A stretch of 60,759 bases of DNA. It comes from an uncultured Dehalococcoidaceae bacterium. Lineage in GTDB: Bacteria > Chloroflexota > Dehalococcoidia > Dehalococcoidales > RBG-16-60-22. The notes under the pieces were generated by a model. It had not been told where the DNA came from and did not search any database. It saw nothing but the letters and a program-made list of their open reading frames with translations. The stretch is from NCBI GenBank assembly GCA_964545815.1, contig CAZJGR010000002.1, forward strand, positions 1-60,759, given 5' to 3'. The position numbers and the translations under genes are program-made. Shown piece by piece: positions 1,091-60,759 of this stretch; position 1 is the first letter of the stretch; each line of letters starts with the position of its first letter.

Positions 1091-1954
1091 CTACAGCAAC
1101 CTCACGGCCTCGGCCAGTTCAGAATCTACGACGTGGGTGTACAATTGAGTGGTGCTCAGGGAGTTGTGCCCAAGAAGGACCTGTACCACCCTGATGTTAG
1201 CTCCCCGTTGGAGTAGGCGGGTGGCAAAGGTATGCCTGAGCATGTGTGGAGAGAGCTTAAACCCGGCCTGTTCGCCCGCCTTTTGGACGACGTGCCCCAC
1301 GGCCCGCCTTTTCAGGCCGCCTCCCTGATACCCCTTTAGCAAAGGCTGATCGCCGTCCTTATAGGGGACGGATTGAAGGTAGAACAGGAGGGCCTCCTGT
1401 AAGGTGTCCTTGATAGGAACGGTCCGCTCCTTGTTCCCCTTGCCTCTGACTCGAATCTGCCCGCTCTCGAGGTCCAGAGAGCTTCTCTTCAGTCCCACGA
1501 CCTCGGACAGTCTGAGACCGGCAAAAAGCATGAGGTAGATGATCACCCTGTCGCGCCTCGACAGGGTGGCCCCGATCAGAGCCAGGACCTCCGACCCGGT
1601 CAGGACTCGGGGCAAGCGATACTGCGCCCCCCCTCTCCCGAGGGAAATCCCCTCCATCGGCGAGGATGCCATCCATCCATTGACTACAGCCCAAGAGTAG
1701 AAAGCCCTCAAAGCGGCCACGATCCGCCAAAGGCTGGCCTGCGCCAACCGTTGACCCTGGGATGTAATGAATTCCTCTATGTGCCGCGGCGTGGCCATCA
1801 GAAGCTCGCTGTGAGGCTCAGAGAAGATACGTGGCCGGACTCCCCTACTCGCCAGGAACCGCCAAAACCGCGTGACCTCGTAGAGATATGCCTTGACGGT
1901 TTGCGGACTATAGCGGGCCTTTAGATACAAACTCCATGCCTGTAGAGTTGGCAT
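1091..1954 (-). CDS. int: tyrosine recombinase / phage integrase (XerC/D-like)
   Basis: C-terminal HMLRHTFATRLL...LLGHNSLSTTQLYTHV (R..HxxR..Y catalytic signature). Start trimmed to ATG 1954 (MPTLQAW) behind GGAAAGGAGG. Confidence 0.93.
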   Translation of the reverse strand: MPTLQAWSLYLKARYSPQTVKAYLYEVTRFWRFLASRGVRPRIFSEPHSELLMATPRHIEEFITSQGQRLAQASLWRIVAALRAFYSWAVVNGWMASSPMEGISLGRGGAQYRLPRVLTGSEVLALIGATLSRRDRVIIYLMLFAGLRLSEVVGLKRSSLDLESGQIRVRGKGNKERTVPIKDTLQEALLFYLQSVPYKDGDQPLLKGYQGGGLKRRAVGHVVQKAGEQAGFKLSPHMLRHTFATRLLQRGANIRVVQVLLGHNSLSTTQLYTHVVDSELAEAVRLL

Positions 1955-2123
1955 CTTGAGTGACCTCCTTTCCACTGATTCTCCTATTCAGGTAACATGC
2001 GACGTGAGCCACCCCCTGGCCAGGGCGGGGGAACTGAACGTACCCGCTGCCCTTATAACACCCCTCCCCACAATAGATGCAGTTTCCCACGTGGGTGCCC
2101 TTGCCTTTGTTTTCATCGGCCAT
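1908..2123 (-). CDS. small Cys-rich protein (71 aa), possible Zn-binding recombination directionality factor / excisionase-like partner of the integrase
   Basis: ATG 2123 behind CCAGGAGG. CIYCGEGC...HVAC motif. Overlaps the integrase start by 47 nt. The function is a guess from position only. Confidence 0.45.
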   Translation of the reverse strand: MADENKGKGTHVGNCIYCGEGCYKGSGYVQFPRPGQGVAHVACYLNRRISGKEVTQDANSTGMEFVSKGPL

Positions 2124-4312: not shown

Positions 4313-4599
4313 ATTGGAGTTCAGCACTCCTCTCTCCCGGTCCCCCGCCCCAGCTCACCATGCTCGCCATGAAACTTTCAGTTTCTGCGGCGTTGGCTCA
4401 TGTTTCTTTTGCCAGGGTGGGTATGCCTACCCACCTCGCTACCCACACAACCTCGGCCCGCGCTCCCGCGGGCCTCCTCGACTGTGCCTCTCGCGCAACG
4501 TGGGGGCCAGGAGAGAGCAGGGCTGAAAACCCTGCCCAGATAGGCGGGTTTGCTGCCCGCCTGCCTGTCGCCTGCCTGTCGGCAGACAGGGCAGACAGG

Positions 4600-15291: not shown

Positions 15292-15875
15292 ACTACGGAT
15301 TCCTCGGGCTTATCCACCCGTCAGGCTCTAGGAAGTCGGCGAGCCTCCTACATTTTACGCCTTACCTGACATAGCAGGTTAGAGCCTGGCGGAAGGATAA
15401 ACCGAAACTCCCGCTTTGTGTACGATTGCCATCATTGCACAGTATCCACCGCCGCTGGCCGCATAGTACAACGTACCAGCTATCGATGTAGCATTACCCC
15501 CGCGCTCGGCCTCACGTACCACTATCATCAGGCTGTTTTTGGAAGCTAACTTTGACCTGTTGGTCTATCCCATCTCTCCGAAGAGTCCCCCCCGACTAGG
15601 CGGGGTTACTTCACTCAGAAACTCCATCGCTGGAGGCTGCCTGAGTTGGACCGGTCTCCCTCCGTTTCCACTCTTTGGGAGAGAAGAAGCTTACGCTACC
15701 TTGACACCCCTCTTGTGGCTTACAATCCCCCCGCTTTCTCCGCCATGTTCTCGGCTGTTTCCCCCTCCGCTGGCCCGGTGGCTTTGCGAGTTTCCCCGCC
15801 TCCGTTTCTACACCTGGGCGACCTTCGGGCTGCCTACCCCACTGAGGGGCTTGAGGATTGCTCACTTTTAATTCT
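15292..15875 (-). ncRNA. candidate large structured RNA / 5' leader (~585 nt), class unknown
   Basis: No credible ORF on either strand. Begins ~7 nt downstream of a consensus extended -10 promoter. Minus-strand reading gives these hairpins: GCGGG-GAAA-CTCGC (15799-15786); two-tier ACTCAG..CTCCA-GCGA-TGGAG..CTGAGT (15646-15613); CTC-UUCG-GAG (15585-15576); TCTCCC...GGGAGA enclosing a G-GAAA-C loop (15682-15655); CCCCG-6 nt-CGGGG (15605-15590). A long-range helix pairs 15861-15853 with 15730-15722. A ~24-bp near-perfect duplex pairs 15404-15381 with 15330-15305. Confidence 0.6.
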
Positions 15876-16026: not shown

Positions 16027-16200
16027 TAGGCAGAGCGTGACCTGCAGGACCTCGCTGTAACCGGCGCGACTTGCTCGACTTTGCGCCAACCGGCGTGGCT
16101 TGCTCGACTTTGAGCGGCAGAGCGCCTGACTGTAGTCAAAGGTAGGCAGAGCGCCGGACTGCGCGCGCCTGGATGCAGAGCGCCGGACTGAGGTAGGCAG
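16027..16200. repeat. block of ~29-bp periodic direct repeats (iteron/centromere-like)
   Basis: AACCGGCG(C/T)G(A/G)CTTGCTCGACTTTG at 16059 and 16088. GCAGAGCGCC(T/G)GACTG at 16118, 16147 and 16175, with a degenerate copy at 16031. The region is noncoding. Confidence 0.8.
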
Positions 16201-32218: not shown

Positions 32219-33883
32219 ATGCCATACAAGACGATTGAGGAAGCCAATCCCGCCCTGCGCGGTATTGAGCCGCCCATTACCCTGGAACAGGCCAACATGA
32301 TCGCGGCCTGGGCCGATAAGATCGAGGCCAAGGGCCAGGACGCCAATCCCTGGGCCGTGGCTATAAGCCTGTTCAAAAAGACTCACCATGTGGAAGAGGA
32401 CAAGTGGGTCAAGAACGAGGGGAGCGAGGCCGAATTTAGCGCCTTCCTGAGAGGCCAGGAGGAACCCGACCAACCTTATATCGTAGACCTCCTGTCCGCT
32501 CTGCCCTCTGATAAGAGCGGCAAGCCCGACTTCTCCCAGCCCTTCCGCATCCTGCCGGTGGGCGACATCCACCGGATGGGCCGGCGACAGGTAACTCCTC
32601 AAACCATTGAAGAGTTCGCCCAAAATTGGCTCAACAGGGAGAAACGGGGCATCCGCCGCAAGCGAGTGGTCATTGATGCCGAACACCAGACCGGTGGCAT
32701 CGGCTGGTACACGGCCATCTTCAGCCGCGGTCAAGACGGCCTGTGGGCTACCATTGCCCTGAGCAATGCCGGAGAAAAGCTCCTGGCCGAGCGGGACTTT
32801 TCCTTTTTCTCCCCCGCCGTGGCCTGGCAAATAGAGGATGCCGTTACCGGAGAGATTGTCAGGAACCAGATAGTCGGAGGCGCATTGACCAACTACCCCG
32901 TCCTGGGCGACGCTACCCGCCTGCCCGTTATGGGCTATTCCTGGCGCTACACAGCACCGGCCGGCCGGGATGATCAAGACAAGTATGCCGCCACCAAAGC
33001 TGAAGGGGATGGTGACTACCCCGCCGAAGCTTATCTGGTTGTAGAGGACCCTGAGAAACCGACTACCTGGCATCTCAGAGTTAAGGAGCGAGTCAACGGC
33101 AAGCTCGAATACACCGCTAATATGTGCGGTAAGGCCGCCGCCGCCCTCGGCCCGAAGGGATTCCGGGGGCAACAGGTACAGCTTTCCGAGGAGGACCGCG
33201 CCGCCGCCAAGAAGAAGCTCCTGGCCATTTACCGCAATGAACTTAAGGTTGAGGATGACCAAATCCCCAAACAACTATTTTCGGAGAAAGGAGATGACGA
33301 CATGACAGTGGAATTCAGCGAACAGGAAAGAGGCCTCCTGCGCCAACTGGTTACCGGCCTGGGCAATCTGTTAAAAGGCCAGGAGAAGAAACCGGACGTG
33401 GAACTGCCGGAGGAGTTCACGGCCATGCAGGGCCTGGTCGAGCAGCTTAAGGCCAAAGTCGAAACGTTGGGCACGGAGAAGACCGCCCTGCAGCAACAGG
33501 TCGCGGCCGAAACTTATGCCCGCCAGTTGCAGGAAATGAGGGGCTTTGTCCAGATGTTCTCCCACCTGCCGCTGCCGGTGGAGTTGCCCAAGGACGCTCC
33601 GGCCGGAAGCATGACGACCCAGGAGCACCTGCTATGGCTGCGTGACTCGGACAGCACCGAAGGGAAAAAGCACTGGGCCTTTTTTGCCGCCCTGCTGGCC
33701 ACCCTGGAGAACACCCTGAAGGAAGTGGCCCTCTATGGCGAGTTAGGCGCTTCTTCCGGTGCACCGGCCAGCCCCGATGCCGCGCTGGACCTCCTGGCGC
33801 AGAAGTATGCCACCGATCACAAAGTGCCTTACCTCGAGGCGCTCAAGGCCGTGGCGGCCACCAGCCCACGCCAGGCGGCCTGA
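32219..33883 (+). CDS. putative prohead protease-scaffold protein (Mu gpI-like N-terminal half, coiled-coil C-terminal half)
   Basis: FRILPVGDIHRMGRRQVTPQTIEEF...VVIDAEHQ recalls Mu-like prophage protein I. Lies between portal and capsid. GGGAGG SD. Confidence 0.55.
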   Translation: MPYKTIEEANPALRGIEPPITLEQANMIAAWADKIEAKGQDANPWAVAISLFKKTHHVEEDKWVKNEGSEAEFSAFLRGQEEPDQPYIVDLLSALPSDKSGKPDFSQPFRILPVGDIHRMGRRQVTPQTIEEFAQNWLNREKRGIRRKRVVIDAEHQTGGIGWYTAIFSRGQDGLWATIALSNAGEKLLAERDFSFFSPAVAWQIEDAVTGEIVRNQIVGGALTNYPVLGDATRLPVMGYSWRYTAPAGRDDQDKYAATKAEGDGDYPAEAYLVVEDPEKPTTWHLRVKERVNGKLEYTANMCGKAAAALGPKGFRGQQVQLSEEDRAAAKKKLLAIYRNELKVEDDQIPKQLFSEKGDDDMTVEFSEQERGLLRQLVTGLGNLLKGQEKKPDVELPEEFTAMQGLVEQLKAKVETLGTEKTALQQQVAAETYARQLQEMRGFVQMFSHLPLPVELPKDAPAGSMTTQEHLLWLRDSDSTEGKKHWAFFAALLATLENTLKEVALYGELGASSGAPASPDAALDLLAQKYATDHKVPYLEALKAVAATSPRQAA

Positions 33884-56964: not shown

Positions 56965-56993
56965 TTGACAGAAACCCCTTTCTGTGCTAAAAT
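56965..56993 (+). promoter_or_regulatory. sigma70-type promoter P-rep (TTGACA-17-TGcTAAAAT)
   Basis: -35 at 56965-56970, -10 at 56988-56993, TGn extended -10. GTGCTAA (56984-56990) and TTAGCAC (57009-57015) form inverted repeats bracketing the transcription start. Confidence 0.75.
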
Positions 56994-57028: not shown

Positions 57029-57349
57029 ATGCACGATCCCATAAAGCTCATGCAGGGCCGCTCAAAGCCCATCAACGTGAGCCTGACCACTAACTTGGAA
57101 CAGGCTCTGCGAGCGCAATCCCGCAAAGAGAACCGGCCTATCTCCCGCATTGTCCGCCTGGCCGTTCTCCACTACCTGATCGCCCGGGACCGGCCGCCCA
57201 GGGAGGAACTCCATGACCACGGCGAGGAGTGTGAATACCAGGAACACGACGGCACTTTCTGTGCATGGGCCTGGGAGTCCTGCAACGGCCCGACCGATGG
57301 GTGCGGTTTTTTTCCAAGACGTCCCCGAAAGACCGTAGATGAGAATTAA
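57029..57349 (+). CDS. ribbon-helix-helix protein
   Basis: PINVSLTTNLEQALRAQSRKENRPISRIVRLAVLHYL. Confidence 0.7.
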   Translation: MHDPIKLMQGRSKPINVSLTTNLEQALRAQSRKENRPISRIVRLAVLHYLIARDRPPREELHDHGEECEYQEHDGTFCAWAWESCNGPTDGCGFFPRRPRKTVDEN

Positions 57350-58277
57350 ACCCCTAGCCCGCCCTGGTTACACCATGATGTCCAATTTCACGTTGGACTA
57401 TATCATGCCTCACCTATCCCCCAACGGATGGAAGGTCCTCTGTGTAGCCATTCGGCGTACCATAGGCTGGGTGCACCCTGACGACCCTACCCGCCGCAAA
57501 GAACGGGACCGTATCTCCCTCAGCCAGTTTATGGCCGGGACGGGAATTGCCTCGAAGGAAACAGTACTCCGCGCTCTACGAGAGTGCCTGGGCGAAAACA
57601 GTGAGCACCTTGAATATCTATGCCGCCTGCCGGCGCCCGATCACGCCCAGGCATTTTTATATTACCTCAATACGGAATTGGAGATTGAGGTGCCAGAAAC
57701 CGGTACGGAAATTGTACCCGTTAAGGGAACCGGTACGGAAATTGTACCGGTTGACGAAAAAACCGGTACGGAAATTGTACCGGTTGACGAAAAAACCGGT
57801 ACGGAAACTGTACACACAAAAGAAAAGGGGGATAAAGAAACAGGGGATAAAGAAACAGGGGCCGATCCGCTTCTTTTTGAGCTTGAGAGGGCAACCCTGA
57901 CAGCTCAGGAATCCGAAGGGAACTGGGCTGACCCCGAAACCAACAGCCTGGCCGATAACCTGGTGAAATTGTACTGCGCCCTACAAGGCCAGGCAGAACC
58001 GAAAGGAAACACCAGGCGCACCTGGCGTCTGGCCCTCGGGGAAATCCTCAAGGCCTGGGGCCTGTCCCAGGATGGGGAAACGGCAGCTGCAGCCTTGCGA
58101 ATTCTCCTCGATCCGGAGGGGGAGTTCACCTATCAACGCCGGACCTACCACCCCCTCAAGCCCGGTTTCCAGGGGGACCTGGCCACCGTCATCGGCCGCC
58201 TCCTGGCCGGAGGGACGGGTTATCTGGATGCCCAGGATGAACCGGCCGATATGCCCGGTATTCAATTTGAGCATTAG
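57339..58277 (+). CDS. replication initiator, lambda O-like N-terminal domain
   Basis: YTMMSNFTLDYIMPHLSPNGWKVLCVAIRRTIGW...DRISLSQFMAGTGIASKETVLRALREC. Iterons lie inside the gene. Confidence 0.8.
   Translation: MRIKPLARPGYTMMSNFTLDYIMPHLSPNGWKVLCVAIRRTIGWVHPDDPTRRKERDRISLSQFMAGTGIASKETVLRALRECLGENSEHLEYLCRLPAPDHAQAFLYYLNTELEIEVPETGTEIVPVKGTGTEIVPVDEKTGTEIVPVDEKTGTETVHTKEKGDKETGDKETGADPLLFELERATLTAQESEGNWADPETNSLADNLVKLYCALQGQAEPKGNTRRTWRLALGEILKAWGLSQDGETAAAALRILLDPEGEFTYQRRTYHPLKPGFQGDLATVIGRLLAGGTGYLDAQDEPADMPGIQFEH
57699..57857. promoter_or_regulatory. candidate origin of replication: 4 iterons plus an A-rich tandem 15-mer tract
   Basis: ACCGGTACGGAAATTGTACC at 57699, 57729 and 57762, with a variant at 57795. 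Each contains GGTAC-N7-GTACC. GGGGATAAAGAAACA x2 at 57828-57857. Confidence 0.7.
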
Positions 58278-58285
58278 AAAGGAGA

Positions 58286-58564
58286 TTGCCCATGCCAACA
58301 TCACCATACAATCCTGGAACCTATAGCCGAAAGGATGTAGCCGGCATCCTGGAGCTCACCCGGCATGACCTGGAGTACATCTCGACCCCGCGGTGGGAAG
58401 AGCTTGATGGGAAATCCATCCACGTGCATGACTGGCGGCGATACATTCCCCCCCCCGTAAAGACGCTATGGCCCCGCCTGGCCTGGGAAACAAGAACCGT
58501 TGCCTACTATCTGGCACAACTGGCCGCCGAGGCCGAGGAGCCTGCCTTGCCAGCAGGCAGGTAG
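58286..58564 (+). CDS. hypothetical protein (92 aa)
   Basis: AAAGGAG SD. The C-terminus and stop come from a CCTGCC...GGCAGGTAG palindrome. Confidence 0.6.
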   Translation: MPMPTSPYNPGTYSRKDVAGILELTRHDLEYISTPRWEELDGKSIHVHDWRRYIPPPVKTLWPRLAWETRTVAYYLAQLAAEAEEPALPAGR

Positions 58565-58569
58565 GATTG

Positions 58570-59358
58570 ATGGCTAAACGAGATTGCCCGACCTGTCACG
58601 GCGCAGGATTCACCGCCCGGGACGTGCCCACAGGACATCCCGACTTTGGAAGGATATACCCCTGCGATTGCTACAGGGAGGAGCTGGCGGCCCTCGCCTT
58701 ACAGAAGGCCATCGGGAAAGCGGGCCTGCCCCCTGATCTGCGCAGGATGAATTTCGACAATTTCCACCCCGATCGGGCCGTGCCTCCGATGGCCCCGACG
58801 CCGGGAGACCGCAGCACCTGGGCCAGACGGGCCAAAGCCCGCCTGGATAGGGCCGCCGCCTTGCCCTCCCTGGAGGAACACGTGAAACGGGTCAAACAGT
58901 ACTGCGTCGACTTTGTGCAGGGCCCGACCTACTTTCTCCTCCTTACCGGAGGAACCGGCTGTGGTAAGACTCACCTGGCAGCGGCCATGGCCAACCACTG
59001 CCTGGAGAATCGTCTATCCGCCGTCTGCCTGGTGGTAGTGCCCGACTTGCTGGACAGCCTGCGGGCCTCAATGAAGGCCGAAAGTAAGGTTGGCTTTGAC
59101 CAACTTTTCGCTGCCTACAAAATGGCCCATCTGCTGATCCTGGATGATGCCGGAGTGGAGAAGCCCACGCCCTGGGTGGGAGAGAAGCTCTATCAGTTAT
59201 TTAACTACCGCTACAATCATTGCCTGCCCACGGTGATCACCTCCAACGACACCCCAGGAGCCTTTGACCCTCGGCTACAGAGCCGCTTATTTGACAGGCG
59301 TAACCGACGCCTTGAAATCCTGGCCGGTGATTACCGGCTAAGGAGTGACGGGGGATGA
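58570..59358 (+). CDS. DnaC/IstB-like helicase loader with N-terminal Zn finger
   Basis: Trimmed to ATG 58570. CPTCHGAG. LLLTGGTGCGKTHLAAAMA (Walker A), LLILDDAG (Walker B). Confidence 0.85.
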   Translation: MAKRDCPTCHGAGFTARDVPTGHPDFGRIYPCDCYREELAALALQKAIGKAGLPPDLRRMNFDNFHPDRAVPPMAPTPGDRSTWARRAKARLDRAAALPSLEEHVKRVKQYCVDFVQGPTYFLLLTGGTGCGKTHLAAAMANHCLENRLSAVCLVVVPDLLDSLRASMKAESKVGFDQLFAAYKMAHLLILDDAGVEKPTPWVGEKLYQLFNYRYNHCLPTVITSNDTPGAFDPRLQSRLFDRRNRRLEILAGDYRLRSDGG

Positions 59359-60387: not shown

Positions 60388-60759
60388 ATGGAAGCGACTG
60401 AGAAACTTGAGAGGTCATGGGCAATTGTAGAACTGTTTGGCCATCAGAAGATAGCGGGACAGGTAGAGGAGACCTCTATCTTGGGTGGTGGCTTTCTGCG
60501 GGTAGACGTTCCTGGAGATGGGGCAGAGGTCACCTTTACCCGTTTCTACTCGAAAGAAGCGATCTACAGCCTGACCCCTGTCAGCGAGGACGTCGCTCGC
60601 CTGGCGGCCAAAGAACTCCAGACCAGACCTGTCACGGTCTGGATTCCCACGGCCCGTTTCCTGCCCGCCCACCCTACCCTGCCTCCTGCCTGTGCCCCGG
60701 AAGAACTTGATGACTACGAGGAACCTGATGATTACGAGGAGGGCTGGCAATACTACTAC
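60388..60759 (+). CDS. conserved phage protein, 3'-truncated by the window end (>=124 aa)
   Basis: ATG 60388 behind GGAAGGGAG and open to the last base. SWAIVELFGHQKIAGQVEE..GGGFLRVDVP resembles a widespread phage family of unknown function. Acidic DDYEE repeats at the C-terminus. Confidence 0.65.
   Translation, partial: MEATEKLERSWAIVELFGHQKIAGQVEETSILGGGFLRVDVPGDGAEVTFTRFYSKEAIYSLTPVSEDVARLAAKELQTRPVTVWIPTARFLPAHPTLPPACAPEELDDYEEPDDYEEGWQYYY

Follow-up and report, generated by a model that had tools for sequence, protein, structure and literature searches.

Why does the gene for a phage replication initiator carry four nearly identical palindromes and a purine/A-rich tract within its own coding sequence? 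The question is raised by a contig of 60,759 nucleotides (nt) of DNA assigned to an uncultured Dehalococcoidaceae bacterium (CAZJGR010000002.1, assembly GCA_964545815.1), which was analyzed over its full length and is called the window here. The contig was binned with a Chloroflexota genome and is, with about 60.7 kb and a temperate siphovirus-type gene set, an uncultured temperate phage of the siphovirus type. Judged from its sequence, the segment from position 57698 to 57861 is very probably the theta-type origin of replication of this phage, located in the region encoding the linker of the initiator, as it is in lambda. We infer from the analysis that the initiator binds to this segment, that the DNA opens and helicase is loaded there, and that the segment is active as an origin. 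A first-pass annotation of this DNA had already stated that the layout mirrors that of ori-lambda, and this was borne out by the presence of intragenic dyad iterons, a junction box, a purine tract, an O-like N-terminal domain (N-domain), and a loader gene downstream. The initiator gene, with its product in amino acids (aa), and the parts of the candidate origin are as follows.

57339 to 58277, plus strand: gene for a lambda-O-like replication initiator of 312 aa, assigned by PHROG, hhalign, and AlphaFold2 (AF2)
57698 to 57722, no strand: iteron 1, AACCGGTAC-GGAAATT-GTACCCGTT, with arms complementary at 8 of 9 positions
57728 to 57752, no strand: iteron 2, AACCGGTAC-GGAAATT-GTACCGGTT, with perfect 9-bp arms
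57761 to 57785, no strand: iteron 3, same sequence as iteron 2
57794 to 57813, no strand: iteron 4, AACCGGTAC-GGAAACT-GTAC, with a right arm that stops after GTAC
57814 to 57825, plus strand: junction box ACACAAAAGAAA, common to lambda, P22, and most relatives
57814 to 57861, plus strand: purine/A-rich tract, candidate unwinding element, with the 15-bp-spaced units ACAAAAGAAAAGGGGG, ATAAAGAAACAGGGG, and ATAAAGAAACAGGGG

The sequence ACCGGTACGGAAATTGTACC was present as an exact match at 57699 to 57718, 57729 to 57748, and 57762 to 57781, followed at 57795 to 57814 by a fourth copy, ACCGGTACGGAAACTGTACA, with two mismatches to it. The starts of the four copies are 30, 33, and 33 bp apart. When the window was shuffled 100 times with its dinucleotides preserved, ACCGGTACGGAAATTGTACC was never matched, and no further copy is present in the contig or in the assembly of 118 contigs and 1.64 Mb. 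Four 20-bp iterons with a spacing of 30 to 33 bp had been annotated before; the copies and the spacing were recovered, but the full unit is a 25-bp dyad, AACCGGTAC-GGAAATT-GTACCGGTT, with 9-bp arms and a 7-bp A-tract spacer. The inverted pair GGTAC-N7-GTACC, which had been assigned to each of the copies, is contained in copies 1 to 3, but copy 4 ends with GTACA and reads GGTAC-N7-GTACA. From center to center, the distances of 30, 33, and 33 bp correspond to 2.9, 3.1, and 3.1 helical turns. This is a three-turn spacing, and all iterons should therefore be positioned on one face of the DNA. Runs of A6 are located between the iterons at 57752 to 57760 and 57785 to 57793, 1.5 helical turns from the AAATT centers of the iterons.

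Iterons 57698 to 57813 encode aa 121 to 159 of the open reading frame (ORF) 57339 to 58277, between the N- and the C-terminal domains (C-domain) of the product. The translation of the array is PETGTEIVPV / KGTGTEIVPV / DEKTGTEIVPV / DEKTGTETVH-TKEK. This translation, together with the predicted disorder of aa 121 to 175, agrees with the earlier description of the repeats as (K/E)TGTEIVPV-type peptides in the linker of the initiator.

The initiator is composed of a winged-helix N-domain (aa 1 to 120), a disordered linker (aa 121 to 175), and a helical C-domain that ends with GIQFEH. The product of the gene caller, P0001, contains 300 aa and starts 12 codons later than 57339, at a second ATG cluster. 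Since the homologues keep the upstream motif (R/K)IKPLARPG(Y/F)T (IKPLARPGYT), the ATG at 57339 should be the true start. With aa 9 to 83, the protein matched phrog_18020 (1.7e-8) and phrog_678 (2.3e-8), both annotated as “replication initiation O-like.” A profile built from the seven closest homologues, aligned with hhalign to the lambda O protein, connected aa 9 to 96 with residues 27 to 101 of O (93.2%, E of 2.8e-7), and all 24 aligned relatives matched the Phage_rep_O family PF04492 at an E of 0.1 or below, with 8.5e-23 as the best value. These comparisons indicate that the N-domain of the initiator is a remote homologue of the N-domain of lambda O.

When AF2 was run on the alignment of the relatives, aa 1 to 120 were predicted with a pLDDT (predicted local distance difference test) of 78 to 97 as a winged helix with the topology H-H-E-H-H-E-E, aa 121 to 175 remained unstructured with a pLDDT of 38 to 55, and the C-domain was helical at medium confidence. 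The predicted disordered linker agrees almost base for base with the segment of repeats and A-tract at 57699 to 57863. The top folds in Foldseek were MarR-type dimeric winged helix-turn-helix (wHTH) regulators with a probability of about 1 and weak E values (at least 0.09). MarR-type dimeric regulators bind palindromes. When the family profile was compared with the sequences in the PDB, the only matches were insignificant ones to wHTH proteins, and to our knowledge, no structure of an O protein is available. The C-terminal end, G(I/V)x(F/V)E(H/I), is conserved, with GIQFEH at 58260 to 58277 of the window, GVRVEI at 2555 to 2572 of the related locus L002, and GVKVEH at 4452 to 4469 of L005; this tail may be a peptide for docking of the loader. 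The gene following the initiator gene is IstB-like in L002 but incomplete and unannotated in L005. The proteins P0002 and P0003, with 178 and 188 aa, are without the entire C-terminal domain of about 130 aa of the window protein.

Past the iteron array, the sequence continues with ACACAAAAGAAAAGGGGG and two copies of ATAAAGAAACAGGGG. The sequence GGGGATAAAGAAACA occurs at 57828 to 57842 and again at 57843 to 57857, and the program Tandem Repeats Finder (TRF) indicated a period of 15 with 2.8 copies at 57819 to 57861. With a value of 0.875, positions 57814 to 57861 form the most purine-skewed 48-mer of the contig; the tract is among the 0.6% least stable 40-mers, and the G+C content is 43 to 49% at 57650 to 57900 compared to about 58% contig-wide.

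Of 22 curated loci, 15 contain a ACAAAAGAAA box with no more than one mismatch at a distance of 19 to 26 nt from the first position of the last iteron, compared to 0.004 expected per zone. The box is translated in frame 0 (Thr-Lys-Glu) in most loci, in frame 2 in five, and in frame 1 in one, and the codon series ACA-AAA-GAA has a codon-usage probability of about 0.03 in the G+C-rich loci. Because it is read in several frames and because this codon usage is improbable, the box is conserved at the level of the DNA. Iteron 4 and the box, together 34 nt, are 94 to 97% identical to their counterparts in L002, L006, and L007, while the DNA of the N-domain is about 63 to 66% identical; they are the best conserved DNA of the initiator gene. 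The ACA(C)AAAAGAAA box recurs at intervals of about 15 bp in the window, lambda, P22, L036, L051, and L052. The A-rich tracts of 27 loci displayed a 15-nt periodicity with a z of 4.1 at lag 15 and of 4.2 at lag 6, which is inseparable from the codon periodicity. In L012, L013, and L016, prophage-like contigs of isolates in IMG/VR, the box is replaced by ACAC(A/T)ACAGAAATACAT.

How close is this arrangement to the origins already known? In lambda, dimers of O bind four inverted-repeat iterons, the bent O complex opens the adjoining AT-rich region of 38 to 40 bp on supercoiled DNA, and the P-DnaB complex is recruited by O (PMC5043065, PMC7466680, PMC3349717). Ori-lambda in gene O (NC_001416, 39034 to 39160) with the O/P module served as the reference. 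In both phages, the origin is inside the initiator gene just past the N-domain, 348 nt from the start in lambda and 359 nt in the window, and is composed of four dyad iterons with an A-tract center (TCCCTC-AAAA-GAGGGA in lambda and CCGGTAC-GGAAATT-GTACCGG in the window). The last iteron abuts ACACAAAAGA, and there is a purine-rich A tract with a second copy of the box 15 nt further on; the lambda sequence following iteron 4 is ...ATCCCTCAAAACAGGGGGA-CACAAAAGACACTATTACAAAAGAAAAAAGAAAAG. The N-domains of the initiators are homologous (hhalign, 93%). Rightward transcription through the origin, predicted in the case of the window, and a helicase-loading gene downstream are also in common (PMC5043065, PMC3349717, PMC7466680).

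The differences to lambda concern the details of this design. The iterons of the window are 25 bp long with 9-bp arms and are 30 to 33 bp or three turns apart, whereas those of lambda have 18 to 19 bp and are 20 to 24 bp or two turns apart. They are all in one frame and yield a peptide repeat, in contrast to the lambda iterons, which are in different frames. The tract of the window is 56% A+T and interrupted by runs of G, while the 38 to 40 bp of lambda are highly AT rich. The loader is an AAA+ protein of the DnaC/IstB type instead of P, and an additional ORF of 90 aa is positioned between the two genes. The window protein remains below the threshold of PF04492, no homology of its C-domain to O was found, and the host of the phage is a Chloroflexota-type bacterium.

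In P22, the origin is in gene 18 (NC_002371, rep_origin at 32840 to 32984), and the DnaB-type helicase gene 12 is downstream. This is again an intragenic origin in the gene for an O-like initiator, with iterons that contain an A-tract center (TCGGTAAAAC...) and are directly followed by AACACAAAAGACA; the box is repeated in P22 (ACAAAAGACAATAT / ACAAAAGACAATAAAT), and the sequence inside the annotated rep_origin reads ...AACACAAAAGACAATATACAAAAGACAATAAATACAAATACC. The iteron sequence of P22 is another one, and the partner gene encodes a helicase and not a loader. Similar to P22, the relatives L006 and L008 pair with DnaB or primase. In the Stx phages 933W and P27, the number of iterons varies within one family, six versus four, and the extra iterons lengthen the linker of O (PMC7466680). 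A variable iteron number was also found in the relatives of the window, with 3 to 7 iterons at the equivalent site of the gene in about 25 other contigs, but 933W and P27 are close to lambda in sequence, while the window gene is a remote homologue only. Theta plasmids such as R6K, RK2, pPS10, and P1 possess helically phased initiator-binding repeats adjoining an AT-rich unwinding element (PMC5043065). Theirs are direct repeats for Rep monomers outside the rep gene, whereas the window has palindromes inside the gene, which would imply binding of dimers as in the case of lambda O. In terms of sequence comparison, the segment is continuous with the lambda and P22 origins in its design and in part also in its sequence.

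Are the repeats conserved as sites on the DNA or as a peptide? In an index of 5.8 billion proteins, only four close homologues were found, each with four repeats at the equivalent place. The repeat is AACCGGTAC-AGAAACT-GTACCAGTT in L002, AACCGGTCC-CAAAACT-GGACTGGTT in L005, and AACCTCTTC-AGAAATT-GAAGAGGTT in L001. A wider trawl for relatives added 29 viral and 5 genomic loci. The exact pattern of iteron plus box had no match in IMG/VR and two matches in genome contigs, both of them in Chloroflexota metagenome-assembled genomes (MAGs), which were added to the comparison. A blind scan revealed at least three copies of an 18-mer at 255 to 460 nt past the start of the N-domain in 23 of 39 loci, and several more of these loci contained two copies at that position. 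A crude scan for PF04492 loci was positive in 22 of 301 genomes from the same phylum and revealed arrays of the same build in L048, L051, L052, L053, L061, and L064.

The arrays have a common register of an arm, a 7-nt A-rich spacer (nGAAAnT or AAAAAAT), and a complementary arm, on a scaffold of AACC, 5 variable nt, the 7-nt A-tract spacer, the 5 complementary nt, and GGTT. Five types of the inner 4 nt of the arms were found, GTAC|GTAC, CTTC|GAAG, GTCC|GGAC, GTTC|GAAC, and TATC|GATA. The inner arm positions were complementary in 56 of 56 cases from 14 loci, which was equaled by none of 20,000 cross-locus permutations, in a register chosen for maximal complementarity and with loci that are not phylogenetically independent. 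In every array, the right arm of the last repeat is truncated. The spacings in the relatives are 21 to 24 or 30 to 37 nt, corresponding to two or three helical turns, and with a spacing of 23 nt, one DNA repeat is translated in different frames. A single GTACAGAAA core of L006 encodes QYRKCT as well as STEIVP. The peptide varies between TGTEIVPV, TSSEIEEV, and TGPKTGLV while the palindrome is kept. Because the frames shift, the arms compensate, and the box is conserved as DNA, selection acts on the dyads in the DNA, in agreement with what binding sites of a dimeric protein would require. Comparing the recognition helix with the type of arm, L001 with its CTTC arms has SSATLNTA, and the GTAC loci have S(K/R)xT(L/V)xxA; the independent cases were too few to call a recognition-helix code.

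Some of the relatives differ in the composition of the array or its neighborhood. In L011 (3260 to 3460), a segment of about 90 bp with three iterons was duplicated in tandem, leading to seven iterons with a spacing of 34, 23, 33, 34, 23, and 33, which is an example of a change in iteron number by duplication within the gene. L025 and L031 from IMG/VR contain perfect DnaA boxes, TGTGGATAA, immediately before the iterons and once more about 60 nt past the box region. This suggests that host DnaA takes part at some O-type origins; the GGGGATAAA units of the window agree with the DnaA box at 7 of 9 positions only. The cassette of initiator and origin is paired with a ParM/ALP-like actin in L001 (2875 to 4151), with a DnaB-type helicase in L006 (797 to 2098), with a primase plus a DnaB-like helicase in L008 (207 to 2214, minus strand), and with DnaC/IstB loaders in the window and in L002. 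Such a modular shuffling of partners is known from lambdoid phages.

What surrounds the candidate origin on the phage contig? The features relevant to this question are the following.

56965 to 56993, plus strand: promoter-like site TTGACA-17-TAAAAT, sigma-70-like, matching 11 of 12 consensus positions and with a TG extension
57029 to 57349, plus strand: small ORF of 106 aa with a ribbon-helix-helix (RHH)-like N terminus, RHH being assigned by eye
58292 to 58564, plus strand: small ORF of 90 aa between the initiator and loader genes, with marginal PHROG matches only
58570 to 59358, plus strand: DnaC/IstB-type AAA+ helicase-loader gene, encoding 262 aa and a Cys-rich motif at the N terminus of the product
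1091 to 1975, minus strand: tyrosine integrase, identified on the contig

The promoter-like site is oriented rightward, toward the RHH gene, the initiator gene, and the candidate origin. The RHH-like ORF shares 11 nt with the start of the initiator gene and is situated where lambda-type phages have a cro/cII-like regulator; it had no match in Pfam or PHROG, and in L005, an RHH_1 gene is upstream in the same operon. The DnaC-like loader gene that had been annotated downstream of the initiator was confirmed by a score of 51 bits for PF01695 (cutoff 24.1) and by phrog_50 (1e-43), and a DnaC/IstB gene likewise follows the initiator gene in L002. A large terminase, a portal, a major head protein, and a tape-measure protein of 2203 aa are also encoded, and an exonuclease-like protein, RusA, a sigma-like factor, and methyltransferases are further gene products of the contig. 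Related sequences derive from Chloroflexota and Anaerolineae MAGs. Positions 1 to 15 and 60736 to 60750 share GAGGAGGGCTGGCAA in one reading frame (EEGWQ), and the open last ORF would end with ...EEGWQEA* across the start of the contig. Since the ends of the contig have these 15 nt in common in the same frame, the genome is probably circular or permuted, and the assembly probably broke in a short DDYEE repeat.

With these components, initiation might proceed as follows. Dimers of the winged-helix domain of the initiator would bind along one face of the DNA, where the four 25-bp dyads are aligned. By analogy with lambda, the resulting nucleoprotein complex would destabilize the purine/A-rich tract that starts at the ACACAAAAGAAA box, and rightward transcription from the promoter-like site at 56965 could supply negative supercoiling and aid this opening. 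As suggested by the gene content, the C-terminal part of the initiator would recruit the DnaC/IstB-type loader, which in turn would deliver the DnaB helicase of the host to the opened DNA.

Evaluation of this assignment needs to consider several results that weigh against it. The O-like initiator of the first-pass annotation is homologous to O by PHROG and hhalign but not by the standard of Pfam: a scan of the protein gave nothing at an E of 0.01 or below, and PF04492 reached 13.9 bits at aa 10 to 73 (E of 0.08), compared to a gathering threshold of 28.7. A tblastn search of the N-domain against 50,697 GenBank phage records and a blastn search of the module against GenBank phages were without a match. 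The annotated A-rich tract has its two GGGGATAAAGAAACA repeats, but it is just 56% A+T and holds runs of G4 to G5, and several intergenic stretches, such as those at 15867 and 23167, are less stable. The GC skew is negative over the whole contig, follows gene orientation, and gives no signal of an origin. The promoter-like site is defined solely by its agreement with the consensus, with two such sites in the region compared to 1.3 expected, and the choice of register and the shared ancestry of the loci limit the covariation result.

Alternatively, the iterons may be initiator-binding sites used for autoregulation, handcuffing, incompatibility, or exclusion, while replication starts elsewhere. 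Cloned lambda iterons alone can silence replication (PMC3349717), and the low A+T content of the tract, the less stable AT-rich intergenic regions of the contig, and a second phased repeat array at 16027 to 16200 are in agreement with such a role. Nevertheless, this explanation is unlikely: iterons, box, and purine-rich tract inside the initiator gene have the layout of the lambda and P22 origins, iteron half-sites were not found near the promoter, and a scan of the larger ORFs of the contig turned up no other initiator and no primase or helicase. The array at 16027 to 16200, composed of units of about 29 bp (GCAGAGCGCCGGACTG...) in a noncoding gap, was considered as an alternative origin and rejected, being G+C rich, without an adjacent AT-rich tract, and unrelated in sequence to the iterons; a different DNA-binding protein probably uses it.

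Three other explanations were considered. A tandem (K/E)TGTEIVPV peptide in a flexible linker, made by slippage and without any function of the DNA, would account for the spacings, which in the window and in the three relatives closest to it are all multiples of 3 and thus give a peptide repeat, and for the 100% identity of copies 2 and 3 over 33 nt, as if from a recent duplication. The relatives, on the other hand, translate one DNA repeat in different frames, compensatory changes of the arms keep the palindrome while the peptide changes, synonymous positions are conserved, and the segment is predicted to be disordered, which together make this origin of the repeats very improbable. Still less credit can be given to in-frame insertions of the dispersed hairpin-forming repeats of the phage. 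Those repeats are G+C rich, follow a CCTGCCTG...CAGGCAGG pattern, and have no relation to AACCGGTAC-GGAAATT-GTACCGGTT; the iteron 20-mer is confined to the initiator gene, homologous arrays occupy the equivalent position in relatives sampled elsewhere, and the array dates back to the ancestor of the gene family. Equally hard to credit are iterons 2 and 3 as intrinsic terminators of antisense transcription, together with the T6 run of the minus strand. A terminator scan did indicate such a site at 57785 to 57761 on the minus strand with a stem of 9 pairs, a loop of 7 nt, and a TTTTTTCG tail, but it returned 6 terminator-like sites compared to 3.8 expected in shuffles, and no leftward promoter is evident downstream. 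The A6/T6 run is missing in L001, L002, L005, and other relatives, and because the T-run is not conserved, this possibility was rejected.

An origin of replication inside the initiator gene thus being the favored reading, an origin within a lambda-O-type initiator gene is the textbook arrangement, and this one is a divergent member from phages of Chloroflexota-type hosts. What may be new compared to the textbook is that the ACAAAAGAAA box has been conserved over very distant hosts, which hints at a sequence-specific role in opening. The letter-for-letter agreement between lambda, P22, and these phages suggests that the “AT-rich region” contains sequence information that is so far unexplained. 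The AT-rich part was reportedly already found to be conserved among lambda, phi80, and 82 in comparisons from 1979. Only tentatively, the ACA(C)AAAAGAAA box might be a sequence-specific origin-opening element, used from coliphage lambda to the phages of Chloroflexota- and Bacteroidota-type hosts and read by a conserved surface of the O-type proteins; it may be recognized, for instance, as single-stranded DNA. If true, the box would be analogous to the DnaA-trio or the 13-mer of oriC and mark the start of unwinding and the entry of the helicase.

For the biology of these phages and their hosts, the segment provides a candidate origin together with an initiator-loader module for an uncultured temperate phage from a bacterial group for which genetic tools are very scarce, and shuttle vectors are usually built from modules of this kind. 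The relatives represent a natural specificity series with a constant scaffold and at least five types of covarying arms, which could reveal how winged-helix initiators of the O type read DNA.

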